Shown: piece by piece, positions 11,696-22,603 of the stretch
Layout: each line of letters opens with the position of its first letter
Position numbering within the stretch: the first letter of the stretch is position 1
NCBI GenBank assembly: GCA_963751515.1
Contig: CAVVUR010000008.1
Location: forward strand, 140,281-204,280
Direction: 5' to 3'
DNA length: 64,000 nucleotides
DNA from: an uncultured delta proteobacterium
GTDB lineage: Bacteria; Desulfobacterota; WTBG01
Made by a program: the position numbers and the translations under genes
Notes under the pieces: generated by a model
Seen by the model: the letters and a program-made list of their open reading frames with translations, nothing else
What the model was told of the DNA's origin: nothing
Database searches by the model: none

Positions 11696-11724
11696 TTGAC
11701 ACCCCCAAGGCAGTCAAGTATAAT
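11696..11724 (+). promoter_or_regulatory. consensus sigma70-type promoter TTGACA-17 bp-TATAAT upstream of lipoprotein gene 11823
   Basis: TTGACAcccccaaggcagtcaagTATAAT; near-identical over ~35 bp to the promoter at 2970. Confidence 0.55.
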
Positions 11725-11822: not shown

Positions 11823-12737
11823 ATGCCAATCAATAAAGCAAGCTTTTCTTCTTCCGCCTTCTGTTCCTGGCTCTTTTCGGCATTCATGCTTGTGATGTTC
11901 TCCTGTGCACAGCACCGTGAAGCTGAAATTGTGCCGGCAGCGCAGCCGGCGCCTCAGACCGAGATTGAGCGTCAGCTTGAGCAGGCGCGCTCCGACCTCT
12001 CCGTCAGCCAGGCCACCGAGAGGCGAATCACCTCCGAACTGAAGGCCCTGAAGGAGTCAGGAAAGGCGACTCCCGAAATGGTCAAGGATTATGAGATCTA
12101 CCTCAGCCGCGTGCAGTCCATGGTGGCTGAAAAGAAAAAAATCGCGGAGGAGATGGAAAAGGCGTACGCCAGGCACCAGGAGATGGAAAAAGCAGGCAAT
12201 GATTCAAAATCAGCCATACCAGCAGGCGCCCCTCCCGCGGCAGCGGCGCCGGGGCAAGAGGCCGGCGAACTCGGTACCCTGGACCGGGAACTCAGCGCAT
12301 CACTCTCTGAATTTGACCAGATGCTGCTGAAAGAAATGGATGAGATCCGCTCGAAATCTGAAAGCAGGATGAGTACCCTGGCACAGGAAGCCGCTTCGGC
12401 AGCACAAAGAATCGGGGAACAGGGCGAAGAAGCAGGCGGAACATCCGGGGAGCCCGCTTCATCTGAAGGGGGCGAAAAAGGCGGTCAGAAGGGAAGCGAA
12501 GGAGAAAGCGGCGGGAGCTATGAAAACGTGCCGACCACTGATGGGCCGGTCGCAGGGGGATCATCGGCAGGCGGTTCAGCTTCAGGGCAACAGGCGAAGC
12601 GGCCGTCCGGAAGCGACCAGGATGACGACATCGTGGCCCGCCAGCTCCGTGAAGCCGCGGAAAAAGAGACTGATCCGGAGCTCAAAAAAAAGCTCTGGAA
12701 GGAATACGAAGATTACAAGAAATCCACTCGCCAGTAA
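11823..12737 (+). CDS. acidic coiled-coil lipoprotein with Gly/Ser/Glu-rich low-complexity C-terminus
   Basis: Lipobox 'VMFSC'; heptad-like Glu/Lys-rich region; C-terminal 'GGTSGEPASSEGGEKGGQKGSEGESGGS'. Confidence 0.5.
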   Translation: MPINKASFSSSAFCSWLFSAFMLVMFSCAQHREAEIVPAAQPAPQTEIERQLEQARSDLSVSQATERRITSELKALKESGKATPEMVKDYEIYLSRVQSMVAEKKKIAEEMEKAYARHQEMEKAGNDSKSAIPAGAPPAAAAPGQEAGELGTLDRELSASLSEFDQMLLKEMDEIRSKSESRMSTLAQEAASAAQRIGEQGEEAGGTSGEPASSEGGEKGGQKGSEGESGGSYENVPTTDGPVAGGSSAGGSASGQQAKRPSGSDQDDDIVARQLREAAEKETDPELKKKLWKEYEDYKKSTRQ

Positions 12738-12821
12738 CACAATTCAGGGCGTATTTATAAACTGCGATTGCTTATAAATACGATAGCAAGCACCCTTCAC
12801 GTTTTCACCATAATCACAACC

Positions 12822-14024
12822 ATGCGCATTCATCATTGTTTAATCTGCATCTGCCTCTGTTCCATTGCCGCCTGCTCGACTCTCGACGGGGCGCGCCAGA
12901 CCGCACAAACCAAAATGGTGCAGGCGAAGCAGACCATCCCCGAATCCGAGTTGCTGGACGTGGATATCGCCATCTTTACGAGTGACGAGATCACCGAAAA
13001 AAGAGCCCGAAAAGAAGGCACCAATCCCGAGGTGAGAAAGGCTGAGAACCATTTTATTCCCTACCACCTGAAAAACACCCTGGAGGGGAGCGGTTACTGG
13101 GGCATGGTCCGGGTCACCCCGGTGATATCCGATGCGGCGGAAGTCATGGTGCGGGGTGAGATACTTGAATCGAACGGCGAGAACCTTGCCGTCAAGGTGA
13201 CCGTCAGCGACGCCACCGGCAGGGTGTGGCAGGAGAAGGAGTACGGGGCCTCGGCCACCGGCAGCGACTACCTGGGCACCACCCCCGGAGAAAAGGACGC
13301 GTTTCAGGGTCTCTACAACGCCATCTCCAATGACATGTCCCGCTTTCTTCAGGAGTTGCGCCCCGATGAGATACAGACGCTGCGCACCGTTTCAAACCTC
13401 CGCTTCGCGGGTGATTTCGCACCCCATGCCTTCGGGGACTATCTGCAGGAAAACAATGGCCGGTTTACCCTAAAGCGGCTTCCGGCCGACAATGATACCA
13501 TGATGGCCCGCATCCTGCAGATTCGCGAACGTCAATACATGTTTGAGGACGTCATCAACGAGCATTACGAAGGTTTCTACAATGAAATGTGGTCACCCTA
13601 CGAAGGCTGGCGCTCCTCAAACCTGACAGAGCGCCTTGCCCTGGAAAAGCAGCGACGCTCCGCCCTCCTCCGGGAGGCCGCGGGCGCGCTGCTGATAGCG
13701 CTGGCCATCCTGGGCGAAGTGGGCGATGTGCATGATTCCGGCGCCCTGACCGCAACGATGGTTATCATCGGCGGCCAGGTATTTTTAAGCGGCGTCAATA
13801 TCTCCAAGCAGGCCCAAATGCATTATGAAACGCTGGCAGAGCTGGGTGAATCATTCGGAAGCGAAATGAAGCCGGTGGTGATGGAATTTGAAGGAAAGAA
13901 GTATGAGCTGACTGGATCGGCGGAACAGCAATACAAGCGCTGGCGGGAGCTCTTGCGGGAAATATACTATGCCGAGACGGGGTTCCCAGCAGGAGGCGAA
14001 TCAATTGAGGTACAACCACAGTAA
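12822..14024 (+). CDS. hypothetical lipoprotein
   Basis: Probable start MRIHHCLICICLCSIAACS (lipobox IAAC); stop overlaps start of next gene (translational coupling). Confidence 0.5.
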   Translation: MRIHHCLICICLCSIAACSTLDGARQTAQTKMVQAKQTIPESELLDVDIAIFTSDEITEKRARKEGTNPEVRKAENHFIPYHLKNTLEGSGYWGMVRVTPVISDAAEVMVRGEILESNGENLAVKVTVSDATGRVWQEKEYGASATGSDYLGTTPGEKDAFQGLYNAISNDMSRFLQELRPDEIQTLRTVSNLRFAGDFAPHAFGDYLQENNGRFTLKRLPADNDTMMARILQIRERQYMFEDVINEHYEGFYNEMWSPYEGWRSSNLTERLALEKQRRSALLREAAGALLIALAILGEVGDVHDSGALTATMVIIGGQVFLSGVNISKQAQMHYETLAELGESFGSEMKPVVMEFEGKKYELTGSAEQQYKRWRELLREIYYAETGFPAGGESIEVQPQ

Positions 14025-15601
14025 TGGGCAGATCTTGTCTTCCACCGGAAAAACACATGCACGACCAAACGGGCACCACACCTACAGACCCGCGTGACAA
14101 AATCATAACCCCGCTCAAGGTGACCGCGAGAGAAGAAGGGGCCGGTCACGCTGACGGCAGGAAACAATCATTCCGGTATTACACCACGCTGGTTGGGGCT
14201 CTGGTAATCCTCACTGCGGGAGGTCTCTGGCTGTTCAGCTACCTGTCAAGGAACCCCCTGCCACCTGAAGCAGCGCGAAATCAAAAGCAGGCGTCGGAAG
14301 TGACTCCTGAAGCGGTGCCGTCAATCGTTCCTGTCACAACACAACCTCCGGCAGCGCAGGCGCAGTCGGCTGCGCAGAACAAAAAGGAAGAGGCGGAACA
14401 AAAGCTCGCTGATTTTTTGAAAGCAAAAAAAGAGCTTGATGAGAAGGGGGTCGCAGAGTGGGGCGGAGAGGGCTATCAGCGGCTGCTGCAGCTCGCTCAG
14501 GCTGCCGATGCCGCGCTCATGCGGGAAGAGTTTGCAGCCGCCGCAGAGGGCTACACTCAGGCCTCCGCTGTCGCGCTCAGCCTGAAAGCAGGTATGGTGG
14601 ATGCGCTCAGTGACATCCTTGAGCAAGGCCGGCGCGCGCTCAAGGAAGGCGACGGCAAGAAGGCTGAACGGCTCTTCAGACTCGCCCTGATGATAGAACC
14701 TGCGCACCCTGTGGCCCTGCGCAATCTCGATCGCGCCAAAAACTGCGGGAAGGTCTTGGAGCTGCTGCAATCCGCCGCGCGGCATGAAGAAGGCAACAGC
14801 CTTTCTTCCGCCCGTGATGACTACCAGGAGGCCGTTTGGCTGGACCCTGAATCGGAAGAGGCCCGGGCCGGCCTGGCACGCGTGACCGGCCTGATAGCTT
14901 CCCGGCAATTTGATGAATTGATGTCAGGGGGAATAACCGCGCTGCACGCGCACGACTACGGCCGCGCCCGGCAGCTGCTCCTCAAGGCGCGATCGATTAA
15001 GCCCGATTCCCCCGAGGTCAATGACGCTCTCGCTCAGGCGGATTCGGCCCTGAAAAGGGCCCGCATCGCTGGGCTGCAAAATGAGGCGGCTGCTGCCGAG
15101 CGCTCCGAGGACTGGAATGAGGCGCTTGCAGCCTATCAAAGCGCTCTTTCCCTGGATGGCTCCATTCAGTTTGCCCTGCAGGGCAAAGAACGGGCGCTCA
15201 AGCGTAAGGAAATGGAAGAAAGCATCAAAAGCTACCTGGCCCAGCCAGGCCAGCTGGAAACCGACGGATCCCTGAACAGGGCAAGGGCGTTGCTTGGTGA
15301 GGCGCGGCAGATGGAGCCGAGAGGTCCCCGCTTGAGCAGTCTTATACAGGAACTGGATGAGCTTGTTGCCGCCGCCCGCACCACTGTCCCGGTGATTATC
15401 GAATCGGACGGGGAAACCGAAGTGGCCGTTTACAAGGTGGGCAAGCTGGGCCGCTTCCAAAGCAAGGAACTGGCCCTCCGCCCGGGAACCTATACGGTCA
15501 CGGGGGCCCGATCCGGATACAAGGATGTGCGCCGCAGCCTCTCGGTCAAGGCCGGCAGCGCGTCGCTGCGCATAACCGTCAGCTGCACTGAAAAAATATG
15601 A
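14024..15601 (+). CDS. membrane-anchored TPR-repeat protein with C-terminal PEGA-like beta domain
   Basis: Single TM 'YYTTLVGALVILTAGGLWLFSYL'; repeated Ala/Leu-rich TPR-like helices; C-term 'LALRPGTYTVTGARSGYKDVRRSLSVKAG'; overlaps next gene by 4 nt. Confidence 0.6.
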   Translation: MGRSCLPPEKHMHDQTGTTPTDPRDKIITPLKVTAREEGAGHADGRKQSFRYYTTLVGALVILTAGGLWLFSYLSRNPLPPEAARNQKQASEVTPEAVPSIVPVTTQPPAAQAQSAAQNKKEEAEQKLADFLKAKKELDEKGVAEWGGEGYQRLLQLAQAADAALMREEFAAAAEGYTQASAVALSLKAGMVDALSDILEQGRRALKEGDGKKAERLFRLALMIEPAHPVALRNLDRAKNCGKVLELLQSAARHEEGNSLSSARDDYQEAVWLDPESEEARAGLARVTGLIASRQFDELMSGGITALHAHDYGRARQLLLKARSIKPDSPEVNDALAQADSALKRARIAGLQNEAAAAERSEDWNEALAAYQSALSLDGSIQFALQGKERALKRKEMEESIKSYLAQPGQLETDGSLNRARALLGEARQMEPRGPRLSSLIQELDELVAAARTTVPVIIESDGETEVAVYKVGKLGRFQSKELALRPGTYTVTGARSGYKDVRRSLSVKAGSASLRITVSCTEKI

Positions 15602-17697
15602 AAATGTCTGCAGAGCCTCCGGCGCAACAAATCATTGAACCCATACCATTCAAACCGGTCGACTCCCGTCGTCCGCACGGTGGCCTATCCCGCGGACGAT
15701 GGCTGTTCATTGCGCTTCTTGCATGCTTCCTTTTCTTTTTCCTCTACGCGATCCTGTTTGTCTTTACCGCCCGTCAGGTATCAATACAAATACATCCCGA
15801 CCCCGATCGGGTCTCCGTCAAGGGGTCGCTCTTCAGCATCCACATTGGCAGCAGCTACCTCCTGCGCCCCGGAAACTATCGTGTGCACGCCTTTAAATCC
15901 GGGCACAAAGCGCTGGAGCTGCCGTTGCTTGTCACCGGGGAGTCAAACCAGAAACTGGTCGCCGTCATGGAAAAGCTTCCCGGCCGCTTAACCGTAACCG
16001 CTTATCCGCAGGAGCGGCCCGCTGAAACCGTTGCAGGGGCCGAGGTCTCTATCGACGGTCAAAAGGCCGGTGTCACTCCCCTTGCCGTCATCGAGGTCAA
16101 GGCCGGTCCCAGGGAAGTGCTCATCAGGGCAGACCAGTACCAGGACTTCAAAACCTCCCTGGAGGTAGAAGGCATGGGCACCTTGCAGACACTAAACGCG
16201 GCGCTGGTATCAGCATCGGGCGGTATCACCGTTGATTCCATTCCATCAGGCGCGGACGTTGCCATCGATGGAACAGTACGGGGAAAAACCCCCTTGCAGC
16301 TCAAGCTCGGCGCAGGAACCTATGGCTTGGAGATACGCGCCCCCCATTACAAAAGCTGGCAGGACCGCCTTGAGTTAAAGGAAGGTCAGCAGGAGGTGCT
16401 GGATACGGTCACGCTGCTTCCTGCCGACGGCACCATACAAGTGCGGACGAACCCTCCGGGGGCCATTGTGACAGTTGATAAAACCTTCTTCGGACGCACG
16501 CCCGCAAGCATTCCGCTTTCGCCGGAGGCTGATCACGCGCTTCACATCTCCAAGGCGGGCTACGAAAATATTGAAGAAAAGGTGCGTGTGGCCAGCGAAG
16601 AGGTCCGGGAACTCAGCCTGGAGCTGAAACCCGCCACCGGGACCATCCACTTCAGCGTAACACCTGAGAACGCAGAGCTTTACATTAATGCCATGCCTCA
16701 AGGCCCTGTGCCTCCGAGCCTGATCCTCCCATCCGCGCCACAGAAGCTCAAAATAGTAAAAGAAGGTTACGAGACGTATCAAACAGAGATAACGCCGCAG
16801 CCCGGCGTTGCAAAGGAAATAAACGTAACCCTCCTCAAAAAAATCCCGGCCCCGGCGGCAGCGGGTTCAGCAGCGAGCATCAGAGCTGCGAACGGATACC
16901 CCCTGCTCCTGGTCCGGCTTTCCTCCTTTACCATGGGTTCTTCGCGGCAGGAACAGGGACGCAGATCCAACGAAACGCTCCGAGAAATCGTTTTCACCCG
17001 GCCATTTTACATGGGCCTCAAGGAAGTGAGCAACGCTGAATTCCGGGCATTTCTCCCCGGCCATGATTCCGGCTCTCTTCAAGACCACAGCCTCAATCAG
17101 GACGCGCAGCCGGTTGTCAATATTACCTGGGAGGAGGCCGCCTCATACTGCAACTGGTTAAGCGGGAAGGAAAAGCTCCCGCCGGTGTATAGCCTCCGGG
17201 GAGGCAGGTTGATTGCCGGGGGACCCCTGGCAAGCGGCTACCGGCTGCCGACAGAGGCGGAATGGGAATACTGTGCACGCGTGACCGGAAAGACGGCTGA
17301 CTCACTCTATCCCTGGGGCAGCGGCTTTCCGCCCCCGACACGAACCGTTAACATTGCCGACCTCTCCGCCCGGGATCTGCTTCCCGGGTACTTTGACAAC
17401 TATGAGGACGGCTATCCTGTTTCAGCTCCGCCCGCCACCTTCGCTGCCAACGCACTCGGCATCTACGATCTCGGCGGCAATGTTGCCGAGTGGTGCCATG
17501 ACTATTATTCAATATACTCTTACAACCCCGGCCAACGCTACCAGGACCCCGCGGGCCTTCAGGAAGGAACGCATCACCTTATAAGAGGGTCAAGCTTCAG
17601 GCACGCGAGCATCAGCGCCCTGCGATCCGCTTTCCGGGATTACAGCAGTGAAAAAAGACCGGACGTGGGATTTCGCGTCTGCCGGTACGCCGATTAA
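15598..17697 (+). CDS. membrane protein with multiple PEGA domains and C-terminal FGE-sulfatase (SUMF1/formylglycine-generating enzyme-like) domain
   Basis: PEGA motifs e.g. 'SIPSGADVAIDGTVRGKTPLQLKLGAGTYGLEI'; FGE signature 'GYRLPTEAEWEYCAR', 'NVAEWCHDYY'; N-terminal TM. Confidence 0.75.
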   Translation: MKMSAEPPAQQIIEPIPFKPVDSRRPHGGLSRGRWLFIALLACFLFFFLYAILFVFTARQVSIQIHPDPDRVSVKGSLFSIHIGSSYLLRPGNYRVHAFKSGHKALELPLLVTGESNQKLVAVMEKLPGRLTVTAYPQERPAETVAGAEVSIDGQKAGVTPLAVIEVKAGPREVLIRADQYQDFKTSLEVEGMGTLQTLNAALVSASGGITVDSIPSGADVAIDGTVRGKTPLQLKLGAGTYGLEIRAPHYKSWQDRLELKEGQQEVLDTVTLLPADGTIQVRTNPPGAIVTVDKTFFGRTPASIPLSPEADHALHISKAGYENIEEKVRVASEEVRELSLELKPATGTIHFSVTPENAELYINAMPQGPVPPSLILPSAPQKLKIVKEGYETYQTEITPQPGVAKEINVTLLKKIPAPAAAGSAASIRAANGYPLLLVRLSSFTMGSSRQEQGRRSNETLREIVFTRPFYMGLKEVSNAEFRAFLPGHDSGSLQDHSLNQDAQPVVNITWEEAASYCNWLSGKEKLPPVYSLRGGRLIAGGPLASGYRLPTEAEWEYCARVTGKTADSLYPWGSGFPPPTRTVNIADLSARDLLPGYFDNYEDGYPVSAPPATFAANALGIYDLGGNVAEWCHDYYSIYSYNPGQRYQDPAGLQEGTHHLIRGSSFRHASISALRSAFRDYSSEKRPDVGFRVCRYAD

Positions 17698-17718
17698 TCC
17701 TTTAGAAAAAAAATCAAT

Positions 17719-18063
17719 ATGTGCTATACCATAACCATACTGGGTCTGCTCTGCTGCACGTGCCTTCCTGCACCATCATTCAGGGGCGCAAGCGATACGG
17801 TCAGGTGGCAACACATCGGATGGGAAAGCTGTTTCATCCTCACTGACGGCGCTCACCATCCAGGCTTGCTTGCCCAGCGGAGTCAAACCACCATTCCTGA
17901 CAGAAAAGAGCCGGCACCTGAAAAGCAGGATGCCAAGCCCCAAGCGGCAGAACAGAACAAAGAAGTGTCTCAGCAGAAAGATAAAACACCAGCTCCTAAA
18001 GACTTTGTTCCCTCTGAAAAGATTGATGCTGATAAGGCGGTGGATTTTCCGGCAGATATTTAA
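17719..18063 (+). CDS. small Lys/Pro/Gln-rich hypothetical protein (possibly not expressed)
   Basis: ORF only; low-complexity C-terminus; no RBS evaluated. Confidence 0.2.
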   Translation: MCYTITILGLLCCTCLPAPSFRGASDTVRWQHIGWESCFILTDGAHHPGLLAQRSQTTIPDRKEPAPEKQDAKPQAAEQNKEVSQQKDKTPAPKDFVPSEKIDADKAVDFPADI

Positions 18064-18075
18064 GAGGAGTCCGAC

Positions 18076-18879
18076 ATGAAAAAATCGTTTTCTTTATCCT
18101 TTGAGTTCCTGTACCAGTTGTTCTCGCTTATCATCAGCGTTATCCTGGTGCATGCAGTCTACGTGGGGATCATCTGGCCCGCCTCGGATGCATTTCTGGC
18201 CGAACAGGCTGCCCTGATGAAACAGGACCCATCGCACGTAGCCAAGCAGTCCGTCTACGTGGTATTGGTTGACTATGAACAGGAGACAGAAATCATCCTC
18301 ATGTTCTGGGCATTGGCCATCATGATCTACAAAGGCATTGTAATCACCAGAAACCGCACCCTGCTGCAGGAGGACCTGATACCCATGGCGGAGGGAATGA
18401 AAATATTGCCTGAGGATGTCCACGATATCTCCCGGCAGATACAGTCATTGCCGGCGGCGCAGAAGGGTGCCCTGCTTTCCCGGGTTTTGCTTGCCGCATT
18501 GCAGCGTTTCAGTTCAACCCGCAACATTCAGGATGTATCCAATGCCACCAATGCCTATTGTGCTTCTGAAGGAGACCGCCTGGACTCCGAGCTTTCCATG
18601 ATCAGATACGTCCTGTGGGCCATTCCCTCCATCGGTTTTCTGGGCACGGTGCGGGGCATCAGCCTGGCGCTGGGCTATGCCCACCGGGCGGTCGAAGGGG
18701 ACATCTTTGATGTCACCAAAAGCCTGGGGACGGCATTCAACTCAACCCTGATCGCCCTGCTGATAAGTCTCGTGCTGATGTTTTTCCTGCACCAGCTTCA
18801 GCTGCTTCAGGAGCGTTACGTGCTGGATACTGAAACATACTGCGAAGAGAAGCTCATCAGTCGTCTCCACGCCCGTTAG
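18076..18879 (+). CDS. MotA/TolQ/ExbB-family proton-channel protein (stator A-type subunit)
   Basis: Family signature across last two TM helices 'IPSIGFLGTVRGISLALGYAHRAVEGDIFDVTKSLGTAFNSTLIALLISLVLMFF'; 4 predicted TM; AGGAG RBS 7 nt upstream. Confidence 0.75.
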   Translation: MKKSFSLSFEFLYQLFSLIISVILVHAVYVGIIWPASDAFLAEQAALMKQDPSHVAKQSVYVVLVDYEQETEIILMFWALAIMIYKGIVITRNRTLLQEDLIPMAEGMKILPEDVHDISRQIQSLPAAQKGALLSRVLLAALQRFSSTRNIQDVSNATNAYCASEGDRLDSELSMIRYVLWAIPSIGFLGTVRGISLALGYAHRAVEGDIFDVTKSLGTAFNSTLIALLISLVLMFFLHQLQLLQERYVLDTETYCEEKLISRLHAR

Positions 18880-18890
18880 GAGTATAGATC

Positions 18891-20321
18891 ATGACACTGC
18901 TGGGAATCGAGTTGAGTGACGCCGGCATAATGGCAGCTGCAGGAGATCCGCCACTGCTCCTCGACACAGATGGGGCAGAAAAATCAAGCCCCGGTTTTGC
19001 CCTCAGCACCAACGATGGACTCATCATGGGACGAGTTGCCTTAAGCAGGTTTCGTCTCAATCCCCGCTCATACAACAATCGTTTCTGGGACGAGCTGAGC
19101 ACTGAACCGATTAAACAGCCGGGGTTTGAAGGGAAAAGCTATGCGGAGCTGGCATATCGTCACCTGTCAAAGCTATGGGACATCCTCAGGAATAAAGCAG
19201 ACGAGGTTGTCATCGCTGCCCCCGGTTTTTATACCCCGCATCAGCTGGGCATTCTCTTGGGGATTGCGGATGAATTATCCATACCCGTCAAAGGATTTGC
19301 CTCGATCGCACTGGCAGGATCGTCGGCCCCCCATCCTGAGCACCCCCTCCTGCACTTGGACATTCACCTGCACCGGATTGAAATAACCTTTCTCGAGCAG
19401 GGTGACCGCCTTATCCAGAAAGAAGTGAAGACTATTCCGGGTAGAGGTTTCAACTATCTGTACACGGAATGGGTGAAGATGGTTGCAGACGAGTTTGTGC
19501 GAACAACACGTTTTGACCCCTTTGATCAGGCCGCATACGAACAGGAGTTGTACAACCGCCTTCCCCCGGCAATTGAAAGCCTGCAGCCGCATTCATCCAC
19601 GACATTTACCTTACAAGCCGGGGCACACAGCCACCGCGCAACCTTAACCCATGACCTTTTTGCTCAAAAAACCGAAGCCGTGCTTTCAGAGGTGCGCCGG
19701 ATCATCGAGGATATGATGCTCAGTGCAGGCTTCCATGAAAAAGCCCCCGTTCTTTCGATCACTCAACGCATCCGTCACCTGCCCGGCTTCAAAGAATCCA
19801 TATGCAAAATACCCGGTCTCACCATCGTTGAACTTGCGCCGGGATCGGGTGCCCTGGGAGTACTCAAGCTGCGGGACCGATTCACCAGCCAGCACGAAAG
19901 ACAGGGTATCACACTTTTAAACAGCCGCCCCTGGCCGCCCAAATCAGCCGGCGGCCATGCCCCCACCCCACCTGTCCGGGCCATCATGCAGCCCAATCAT
20001 ATCCTGCACGAGGATTGTGCCTACCCCATTACCGCTGAGCCTCTCATCATTGGTCAGAGTAACCATGACGGTGAGACCACCCTGTGCATCAGCAGCAACC
20101 CTTCAGATTTCTCTCAACGATACTGTACCATTCAGCGTGAAAGGGATGATATCGTACTCGTCAATGAGTGTTCGGCCGGCACCCTTGTGAATGAACAAAA
20201 GGTTTTAAAAACATGTGTTCTCAGCCTGGGCCAGAAAATCAGAGTGGGGACACAATCAGATGAGCTCAAACTGATCGCTTGTGTGGGCACTGATGAAAAA
20301 GAGAGACGTAACCGTATTTAG
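18891..20321 (+). CDS. Hsp70/actin-fold ATPase domain fused to C-terminal degenerate FHA domain
   Basis: DnaK-like phosphate-1 'LLGIELSDAGIMAA' and 'VVIAAPGFYTPHQLGILLGIADELSIPVKGFASIALAGS'; C-term FHA-like 'IIGQSNHDGETTLCISSNPSDFSQRYCTIQRERDDIVLVNECSAGTLVNEQKV...LSLGQKIRVG' (Arg->Gln, His->Tyr at canonical positions). Confidence 0.6.
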   Translation: MTLLGIELSDAGIMAAAGDPPLLLDTDGAEKSSPGFALSTNDGLIMGRVALSRFRLNPRSYNNRFWDELSTEPIKQPGFEGKSYAELAYRHLSKLWDILRNKADEVVIAAPGFYTPHQLGILLGIADELSIPVKGFASIALAGSSAPHPEHPLLHLDIHLHRIEITFLEQGDRLIQKEVKTIPGRGFNYLYTEWVKMVADEFVRTTRFDPFDQAAYEQELYNRLPPAIESLQPHSSTTFTLQAGAHSHRATLTHDLFAQKTEAVLSEVRRIIEDMMLSAGFHEKAPVLSITQRIRHLPGFKESICKIPGLTIVELAPGSGALGVLKLRDRFTSQHERQGITLLNSRPWPPKSAGGHAPTPPVRAIMQPNHILHEDCAYPITAEPLIIGQSNHDGETTLCISSNPSDFSQRYCTIQRERDDIVLVNECSAGTLVNEQKVLKTCVLSLGQKIRVGTQSDELKLIACVGTDEKERRNRI

Positions 20322-21384
20322 CATCTCCTTCATTGACTGCATCACCTGCGGCCTGGGCGCGATGCTCCTGCTGTTTGTGATTGTGAATGCCAGGAGCGTG
20401 GCCAGCAGGAGCGAGATCACCTCGGACATCCGGGGAGAAGTTGACCGGATGGAAAAAGAGGTGCTCCAGGGGAAAAAGGACCTGGTGGAAGCCCGCAATA
20501 CAATGGAGCAGACCCTGGAGGAACTGGTGAAAACGCAGGGGCTCTCGCGCAGGGTTATAGCAACCATTACGGAAAAAAAGACCGAGCTTTCCAGTTATGA
20601 CAACGATACCCTCGCCTCCAGGGAACACATCAACCGCTTGAAGGCGGATCTCAAGGCGAAGGAGGAGGCGCTCAAGCGGCTCGAAGGCGGGAGCACCTCC
20701 CGCGACGACCACGGCTCGAAGGTGAGGCAATTCACCGGAGAGGGTGACCGCCAGTACCTGACCGGCCTCAAGATGGGAGGCCAGCGGGTCTTCATCCTTG
20801 TCGATGCCTCGGCCAGCATGCTTGATGATACCGTCGTGGGCATCATCCGCAAAAGGAATATGGCCGACGCGGACAAGCGAAAGGCAGACAAGTGGCGGCA
20901 TGCGGTGAAGTCCATCGACTGGCTGACCACCCAGCTACCCCTCACCGGCTCCTACCAGGTTTACAGCTTCAATGAGACCGCTGCCCCTGTCCTCGAGGGG
21001 ACCGCCGGAAAGTGGCTGGACGGCAACAATTCCCTGCAGCTTAATGAGATAGTCAACCGTTTGCACCTGATGGTGCCGCAGAACGGAACCAGCCTCATCA
21101 ATGCCATTGCCGCCATGCACGCCATGTCACCGCCGCCCGACAACATCTTCCTGCTCACCGACGGACTGCCCACCATGGGAAGAGAAAAGCCCTGGGGCAA
21201 AAAGGTATCCGGGGAAAAGCGCCTGGCCCTGTTTAACGAAGCAACGCGCCAGCTTCCGCCCCAGGTTCCGGTAAATGCAATTTTATATCACATGGAAGGG
21301 GATCCTGCCGCCGCCAGCGCCTTCTGGCGACTGGCCATGGCAACCGGCGGCTCCTTTTTTTCTCCGTCCCGGGACTGGCCCTAA
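20293..21384 (+). CDS. ExbD/TolR-like N-terminal TM helix (conserved Asp) + coiled coil + vWA domain protein, paralog 1
   Basis: TM 'VTVFSISFIDCITCGLGAMLLLFVIV' (cf. TolR 'EINIVPLLDVLLVLLLIFM'); long Glu/Lys heptad region; vWA MIDAS 'RVFILVDASASM', 'NGTSLINAI', 'IFLLTDGLP'; start overlaps upstream gene. Confidence 0.7.
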   Translation: MKKRDVTVFSISFIDCITCGLGAMLLLFVIVNARSVASRSEITSDIRGEVDRMEKEVLQGKKDLVEARNTMEQTLEELVKTQGLSRRVIATITEKKTELSSYDNDTLASREHINRLKADLKAKEEALKRLEGGSTSRDDHGSKVRQFTGEGDRQYLTGLKMGGQRVFILVDASASMLDDTVVGIIRKRNMADADKRKADKWRHAVKSIDWLTTQLPLTGSYQVYSFNETAAPVLEGTAGKWLDGNNSLQLNEIVNRLHLMVPQNGTSLINAIAAMHAMSPPPDNIFLLTDGLPTMGREKPWGKKVSGEKRLALFNEATRQLPPQVPVNAILYHMEGDPAAASAFWRLAMATGGSFFSPSRDWP

Positions 21385-21420
21385 CCGGTTGTTGAAAAAG
21401 GAGTGGCGCATGAATAGCAT

Positions 21421-21457
21421 GTGACTCAAAGGGGGAGGGGTTTTTTAGCCACAACAA
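21421..21457. repeat. partial (left-end only) copy of MITE-like repeat
   Basis: GTGACTCAAAGGGGGAGGGGTTTTTTAGCCACAACAA followed by AGAACGGC block; no right inverted end. Confidence 0.45.
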
Positions 21458-21511
21458 AATTATACGGAGCCTGGAGAACGGCTCTTTTTCTCACAGGTGT
21501 TCATGATGAAT

Positions 21512-21563
21512 GGTAGGAGCGGCTTTAAGCCGCGATCATATCGCACCTGAAGGTGCTCCTACC
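21512..21563. repeat. REP-like imperfect palindrome (GGTAGGAGCGGCTTTAAGCCGC...GCTCCTACC)
   Basis: Arms GGTAGGAGC/GCTCCTACC; related perfect palindrome at 46332. Confidence 0.5.
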
Positions 21564-21601
21564 GACCCATGCATTTTGCTTGCTGCACATTTAAAAAACC
21601 C

Positions 21602-22603
21602 ATGAGAACGCGAAGAAGAGAACTCGAGATATTCAGCCTCTCATTTCTGGACTGCATCTGCTGCGGCTTCGGCGCCATTATCCTGCTCTTTGTCCTGTCG
21701 AAATTCGGCCAGCCCATCAAGATAGAGGAAGTGAAGCAGGATTTGACGGCGCTTCTGGCAAAGCGCGAAGAAGAGCTGTTTGTTATCCGGGGTGAAGTAC
21801 AGGTGCTCAACCGTGAGCTGGAAGGAAAAAAGGAGCAGCTCTCGCGGGAGAAGGAGAGCCTGGCGCGCCTCCAGGGCGACCTCTCAAAATTACAGGGGGA
21901 GTTTGCCGCATCACAGCAAAATGCCGCGGTACAAAACACCATTGAGGGCAAGCTCGCTCAGGCCCAGCAGGAGCTTACCGAGGAGATGAAGCGTCTGCAG
22001 AAGGACCGGCCGGTGGTGCGCGACGGCTCGGTGGGAGGCATCCCCGTCGACAGCGAGTACATTATTTTCATCATCGACACCTCGGGGAGCATGCAGCGCA
22101 ATGCCTGGCAGCTGCTGCAGAAAAAGCTCCGCGAAACGCTGGATGTCTACCCCCGGGTCAAGGGCATCCAGGTCATGAACGACGAAGGCACTTATTTATT
22201 TCCCGAGTACCGCGGCAGCTGGATCCCCGACACCGCGGGCCGCCGAAAGGTGATCATCAACACCTTAAGCGGCTGGACACCCTTCAGCAACAGCAGCCCC
22301 GTGGAAGGGATCAACGAAGCCATCTCCACCTATTACGATCCCGGCAGGAAGATCAGCCTCTATGTCTTCGGCGATGAGTTCAGCGGATATGACATGCAGG
22401 GGGCAATCGATACCGTGGACCGGTTAAATAAAGCGGACAGGACTGGCGCGCGGCGGGTGAGGATCCACGCGGTGGGATTTCCCACGGTGCTCAAAGATAT
22501 CCGCGATGAGATGAATACAGGGGTTCGCTTTGCCGCCCTGATGCGCGTCCTCTGCCAGCGAAACGGGGGCACGTTTGTCGGGCTCAACACCACCAGGCCT
22601 TAG
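21602..22603 (+). CDS. ExbD/TolR-like N-terminal TM helix (conserved Asp) + coiled coil + vWA domain protein, paralog 2
   Basis: TM 'LEIFSLSFLDCICCGFGAIILLFVLS'; coiled coil; vWA 'YIIFIIDTSGSM', 'LYVFGDEFSG'; ORF in track begins at 21569, the Met at 21602 is preferred by homology to paralog 1. Confidence 0.7.
   Translation: MRTRRRELEIFSLSFLDCICCGFGAIILLFVLSKFGQPIKIEEVKQDLTALLAKREEELFVIRGEVQVLNRELEGKKEQLSREKESLARLQGDLSKLQGEFAASQQNAAVQNTIEGKLAQAQQELTEEMKRLQKDRPVVRDGSVGGIPVDSEYIIFIIDTSGSMQRNAWQLLQKKLRETLDVYPRVKGIQVMNDEGTYLFPEYRGSWIPDTAGRRKVIINTLSGWTPFSNSSPVEGINEAISTYYDPGRKISLYVFGDEFSGYDMQGAIDTVDRLNKADRTGARRVRIHAVGFPTVLKDIRDEMNTGVRFAALMRVLCQRNGGTFVGLNTTRP

Follow-up and report, generated by a model that had tools for sequence, protein, structure and literature searches.

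The window, a stretch of 64,000 nucleotides, carries at 18076-22603 four genes whose products had been read as a MotA/ExbB-family channel, an Hsp70-FHA protein and two membrane-anchored vWA proteins, and this locus raises the question of whether such vWA proteins can act as the B subunits of an ion-driven motor. The case for it is built on the domains and folds of the proteins, on their conserved residues and on the linkage of their genes: we consider it probable that g6, g8 and g9 form a 5:2 ion-driven (probably proton-driven) motor, which would work with envelope partners and with g7 as an accessory protein.

The gene cluster and its conservation

The ORF list confirms four co-directional genes at 18076-22603 on the + strand, tightly packed or overlapping as predicted, with a gap of 11 nt between g6 and g7, an overlap of 29 nt between g7 and g8 and a gap of 217 nt between g8 and g9. 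They form the downstream half of a conserved operon (11823-22603) with about nine genes, a cell-envelope cluster that recurs in many bacterial phyla. The four-gene module had been proposed alone; the upstream part of the larger operon also codes for lipoproteins, a TPR protein and a PEGA-domain protein. The listed ORFs of the vWA pair span 20281-21384 and 21569-22603, and since their homologs are 363 and 333 aa long, the true starts are likely 20293 (g8) and 21602 (g9). The features are given below; the candidate sigma-70 site lies about 100 nt upstream of g1, the first gene of the cluster.

11696-11724, + strand: candidate promoter, TTGACA-17-TATAAT, 12/12 match to the sigma-70 consensus (consensus match alone)
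11823-12737, + strand: g1, putative lipoprotein, lipobox ...MFSC
12822-14024, + strand: g2, lipoprotein, lipobox IAAC, ring-forming-lipoprotein fold at the N-terminus
14024-15601, + strand: g3, TM-anchored TPR protein, Pfam TPR matches, TM residues 56-74
15598-17697, + strand: g4, PEGA and FGE-sulfatase-fold protein (Pfam), TM residues 37-55
17719-18063, + strand: g5, small signal-peptide protein, 114 aa, Pro/Lys/Glu-rich, slot conserved
18076-18879, + strand: g6, MotA/TolQ/ExbB-family subunit, 267 aa, Pfam PF01618
18891-20321, + strand: g7, Hsp70 NBD-fold and FHA-like protein, 476 aa, AlphaFold2/Foldseek and Pfam FHA
20293-21384, + strand: g8, vWA1, predicted B-type (axle) subunit with TM helix, coiled coil and vWA
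21602-22603, + strand: g9, vWA2, predicted second B-type subunit, g8 paralog with TM helix, coiled coil and vWA

A MotA-like gene and the vWA pair are linked in at least 80 genomes of Desulfobacterota, Planctomycetota, Verrucomicrobiota, Acidobacteriota and Myxococcota, and also of Gammaproteobacteria; relatives are held by at least 589 genomes, and the family comprises 1367 clusters at 50% identity. The gene-neighbourhood comparison revealed very strong synteny: vWA2 follows vWA1 in 81 of 82 loci and the MotA-like gene lies upstream of the pair in 76 of them, with g4 and g3 syntenic in 63 and 54, respectively. PEGA/FGE, TPR and lipoprotein genes are found upstream wherever the contig permits, in at least six phyla. 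The cluster is chromosomal, and no plasmid copies of it were found. One locus, L092, contains the vWA pair together with an Hsp70-like gene homologous to g7 and has no adjacent MotA-like gene, indicating that the vWA pair can be encoded apart from the channel.

The channel protein and the paired vWA proteins

The 267-aa protein g6 matches the Pfam profile MotA_ExbB (PF01618) with E=1.9e-12 and 47.5 bits for a cut-off of 22.9, in agreement with its assignment to the MotA/TolQ/ExbB family, and the channel motifs claimed for it were found. Four hydrophobic segments are present (15-33, 73-91, ~177-197 and 220-238). TolQ is the sole PDB profile match (E=0.0025), and residues 151-258, covering the last two TM helices, align with E. 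coli TolQ (hhalign, 90.6%); the same comparison with MotA was insignificant. Since these two helices align with TolQ, T191 (codon at 18646-18648) and T224 (18745-18747) fall on TolQ T145 and T178, and both are invariant in 66 orthologs. g6 is predicted to be a pentameric A subunit.

The vWA proteins had been described as paralogs with an Asp-bearing TM helix, a coiled coil of ~100 residues and a vWA domain with a MIDAS motif, and each of these features was recovered. Profile-profile alignment of the g8 and g9 families (hhalign) gave 99.9% and E=8e-32 over 314 columns, that is, full length, and BLASTP detected similarity in the N-terminal 100 residues only; judged by these alignments, g8 and g9 are true full-length paralogs with stalks of equal length. 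g8 consists of a basic N-terminus, a TM helix (13-31) with a CGxGA face, a coiled coil (~35-140, residues 40-140 of which match coiled-coil PDB entries) and the vWA domain. Its MIDAS is made of DASAS at 171-175 (D171, S173, S175), T266 and D290; that of g9 contains DTSGS at 159-163, conserved in the vWA2 family, and the vWA Pfam scores of both proteins lie below the gathering threshold. F13, D15, G20, G22, L26, S173 and D290 are invariant in the g8 family, G20 and G22 making a small-residue face in the predicted helix.

Both proteins are predicted to be single-pass and N-in with basic N-termini, the topology that was expected. The helix Asp (g8 D15, codon at 20335-20337; g9 D17, codon at 21650-21652) stands 2-4 residues into the helix, as do MotB D32, ExbD D25 and TolR D23. 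Every one of 114 close homologs has it, as do ~95 N-complete representatives at 50% identity (down to 31% identity) and the vWA2 family; across both families, it is invariant in >200 homologs. The helices had been likened to those of ExbD, TolR and MotB: this holds for position and function, whereas similarity in sequence is not significant, profile comparison with TolR, ExbD and MotB giving probabilities of <1%. Pfam has no match in the N-terminal 60 residues of the vWA proteins.

No ExbD/TolR/MotB-type protein was found among the nine cluster ORFs and 22 flanking ORFs with Pfam and NCBIfam, nor by phmmer with the E. coli proteins in all six-frame ORFs of the window, an insensitive test. Likewise, exbD, tolR and motB are absent within +/-9-10 kb in annotated loci of Deltaproteobacteria, Brocadiaceae and a 36%-identity lineage. 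The claim that no canonical B-subunit gene lies nearby therefore stands for the scanned ORFs and the annotated related loci. The B-type subunits themselves contain neither an ExbD/TolR domain nor a MotB-type peptidoglycan-binding domain.

The vWA pair could instead be ordinary membrane-anchored periplasmic adaptor or adhesion proteins located outside the channel, either BatA/BatB-like or binding to its side like TolA/TonB, while g6 would work alone or with a B subunit encoded elsewhere. The non-significant profile comparisons of the helix with ExbD, TolR and MotB and the arrangement in L092 are consistent with this, as is another vWA family described in PMC12204202, which binds to the side of a TolQR motor like TolA/TonB. 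However, we regard such a role as unlikely, given the charged Asp that is invariant in the single-pass helix of both paralogs across these >200 sequences, the near-obligate adjacency of g6, g8 and g9, and the absence of exbD, tolR and motB from every annotated neighbourhood. In addition, the SHLS/His motif of side-binding TolA/TonB-type helices is missing from the g8 and g9 helices, as read from their sequence, and MoxR/DUF58 genes, which are part of Bat operons, are not present.

The proposed motor, its partners and g7

The original reading of the locus as a 5:2 motor is well supported by the invariant Thr pair, the invariant helix Asp and the linked genes; what we infer is the stoichiometry itself, that the complex rotates, that the vWA chains pair as a heterodimer, which periplasmic proteins they contact and what g7 does. 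In the proposed mechanism, g6, g8 and g9 would form an inner-membrane motor of the MotAB/ExbBD/TolQR type, in which the TolQ-like g6 pentamer encloses two "transpore" helices, one per vWA paralog. This insertion would agree with a published prediction for very probably the same family (see below). The Asp near the cytoplasmic end of each transpore helix would face the Thr191/Thr224 ring, and protonation and deprotonation of both Asp would lead to relative rotation of the pentamer and the dimer. The periplasmic part of each B-type chain would comprise the ~100-residue coiled coil (roughly 15 nm) and the MIDAS vWA head, the two chains probably forming a heterodimeric stalk through which force or torque reaches partners in the periplasm or the outer membrane. 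Most likely to play this role would be the products of g1, g2, g3 and g4, encoded just upstream in the same operon, with envelope tethering, export or surface movement as candidate outputs.

Among these candidate partners, g2 is a PelC/FlgT/CsgG-fold lipoprotein: its N-terminal domain shares the fold of the FlgT H-ring, PelC, CsgG, TolB-N, PqiC and LptE (ring-forming outer-membrane lipoproteins) and precedes a long helical hairpin and, at the C-terminus, a small domain. The second lipoprotein, g1, consists of a body of coiled coil and Gly/acidic low complexity and an acidic conserved C-terminal helix (DDDIVARQLREAAEKE..LWKEYEDYKK); tblastn places it ahead of g2 in 28 related loci, where this motif is 40-86% identical. 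The TM-anchored g3 matches TPR_11/TPR_1/TPR_2 in Pfam and ends in a CarboxypepD_reg-like tail, a C-terminal beta-sandwich. g5 is poorly conserved in sequence and conserved in position: tblastn detects it in just 8 loci, and a 97-114-aa ORF occupies the same slot at L001, L002 and L088.

The TM-anchored g4 contains four PEGA domains (Pfam PEGA, E=2.7e-49) and a C-terminal FGE-sulfatase domain (E=6e-39) without the FGE catalytic Cys pair. The closest solved structures to this non-catalytic domain are PorK/GldK (E=3e-18 to 4e-18, versus 1e-15 to 1e-16 for true FGEs), and the NCBIfam GldK profile matches g4 with E=1e-30. The gldK-gldL-gldM-gldN operon has an order that the succession of a PorK-like gene, an A subunit and TM-plus-periplasmic B subunits parallels here. 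The cluster might thus be a divergent relative of the T9SS/gliding PorKLMN (GldKLMN) machinery, its motor driving a PorK-like ring that would serve in secretion or surface motility. Such a relationship appears very improbable: the GldK score is far under the cut-off (107 versus 350 bits), the A subunit is of the TolQ/MotA family with four hydrophobic segments, as against two TM helices in GldL, the hosts belong mostly to phyla other than Bacteroidota, and neither GldM, GldN, PorM, PorN nor other T9SS genes or domains were detected in the cluster and the annotated loci.

The original prediction presented g7 as an Hsp70-fold ATPase fused to a degenerate FHA domain. The fold is confirmed by an AlphaFold2 model (pLDDT 86.7), for which Foldseek retrieved nucleotide-binding domains of DnaK/Hsp70 (E=1e-18; TM 0.78 to 6w6e_I), and hhalign aligns g7 with DnaK residues 2-150 (74%, E=3e-5); no Hsp70 match was obtained in Pfam or PDB sequence searches. 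The Hsp70 NBD fold takes up residues ~1-340 and is joined through a disordered linker at 352-365 to an FHA-like beta-sandwich at ~370-462, of which residues 387-453 match Pfam FHA at threshold (20.9 versus 20.7 bits). By contrast, the ATPase activity is doubtful. Motif inspection on the homolog alignment shows degenerate nucleotide-binding loops, with the canonical Hsp70 ATPase loops absent, so that g7 is probably not an ATPase; the FHA phosphothreonine-binding Arg is degenerate as well. No TM segment is predicted in g7, which is cytoplasmic, and the overlapping stop and start couple it translationally, as read from the gene coordinates, to g8. It was found in 52 of 66 scorable loci; at the remaining 14, about one in five, the periplasmic and outer-membrane genes are kept. 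No positions discriminate g6-type sequences from loci with and without g7, and thus no g7 docking site is evident.

The coupling of a cytoplasmic FHA-like/Hsp70-fold protein to the vWA genes, its retention beside the pair in L092 and weak PADLOC matches (E=5e-4) covering the MotA-like portion of ZorA could also point to a membrane sensor or transducer, which would report envelope/PMF status or a ligand of the vWA head to the cytoplasm via g7, as a Zorya-like trigger. Yet the conserved cluster is devoid of effector, kinase, phosphatase and nuclease genes, the FHA domain is without its phosphate-binding Arg, g7 is the gene lost where the envelope genes remain, and the ZorA matches are confined to the shared channel domain. 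Unlike defence islands, the cluster is chromosomal, without plasmid copies and stable in gene order across phyla. A sensor is, in our view, quite improbable. In the motor that we favour, g7 would be an accessory protein, most likely an adaptor, clutch or regulator at the cytoplasmic face, which may contact either the loop of the A subunit or the vWA proteins at their short, basic N-terminal tails.

Comparison with known systems

With the Tol-Pal (TolQ-TolR-TolA) and Ton (ExbB-ExbD-TonB) motors, the proposed motor shares the TolQ-like last two TM helices of g6 with the equivalent Thr pair, the B-type helix Asp near the cytoplasmic end and an apparent projection of force across the periplasm. 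It differs by two unlike B subunits without the ExbD/TolR periplasmic domain and by an extra N-terminal hydrophobic segment in g6 (four versus three). No separate TolA/TonB-type transducer is present because stalk and head belong to the B subunit itself. MotAB/PomAB flagellar stator units would share the inferred four-TM A subunit and the 5:2 logic, and the D-x-x-T and small residues of the B helix resemble, by eye, MotB ADFMTAMMAFF; in contrast, the g6-MotA alignment is insignificant, and there is no plug helix, OmpA-like peptidoglycan-binding domain or flagellar gene in the cluster.

The AglRQS-Glt gliding machinery of Myxococcus also has a heteromeric B pair (AglQ/AglS) with one A subunit, a vWA protein in the force-output path (the adhesin CglB) and TPR and lipoprotein accessories. 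However, AglQ and AglS are TolR-like and CglB is a separate outer-membrane lipoprotein, whereas here the vWA is fused to the B subunit; Glt homologs were not detected in the cluster with Pfam and NCBIfam. In GldLM/PorLM with the PorK/N ring (T9SS), as here, a long periplasmic extension comes after the TM helix of the B subunit, and a PorK/GldK-like FGE-fold gene (g4) lies just upstream in our cluster. The A subunit is nevertheless a TolQ-family protein and not GldL, coiled coil and vWA take the place of GldM domains in the periplasm, and g4 is TM-anchored with PEGA repeats and is no lipoprotein. The anti-phage motor Zorya ZorAB likewise departs from the canonical 5:2 design by an added long helical extension, and the weak ZorA matches lie in its channel domain; there, ZorA carries the long tail on the cytoplasmic side, and peptidoglycan is bound by ZorB. 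ZorC/D/E-like effectors are absent here, and the context is core-like as opposed to a defence island.

The architecture had been thought to match no recognised system, but it has already been proposed in silico: genome analysis led to the prediction of TolQ-like pentamers containing pairs of "transpore-helix vWA" proteins, with Idiomarina loihiensis as reference species, and AlphaFold 3 models placed an Asp pair inside the Thr ring of the pentamer (Mol Biol Evol 2025, PMC12204202). That system shares with ours a tolQ-like gene in tight linkage with two distinct genes for TM-tethered vWA proteins, no tolR/exbD/motB, a helix without the SHLS motif, a conserved helix Asp with a conserved channel Thr ring, and a range including Proteobacteria and Verrucomicrobia. 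Judged by these defining features, g6, g8 and g9 very probably belong to the same family. Both studies are purely computational. The text of PMC12204202 mentions neither the Hsp70-fold/FHA gene (with zero occurrences of Hsp70 and DnaK) nor the upstream lipoprotein, TPR and PEGA-PorK-like genes, nor members in Desulfobacterota, Planctomycetota and Acidobacteriota.

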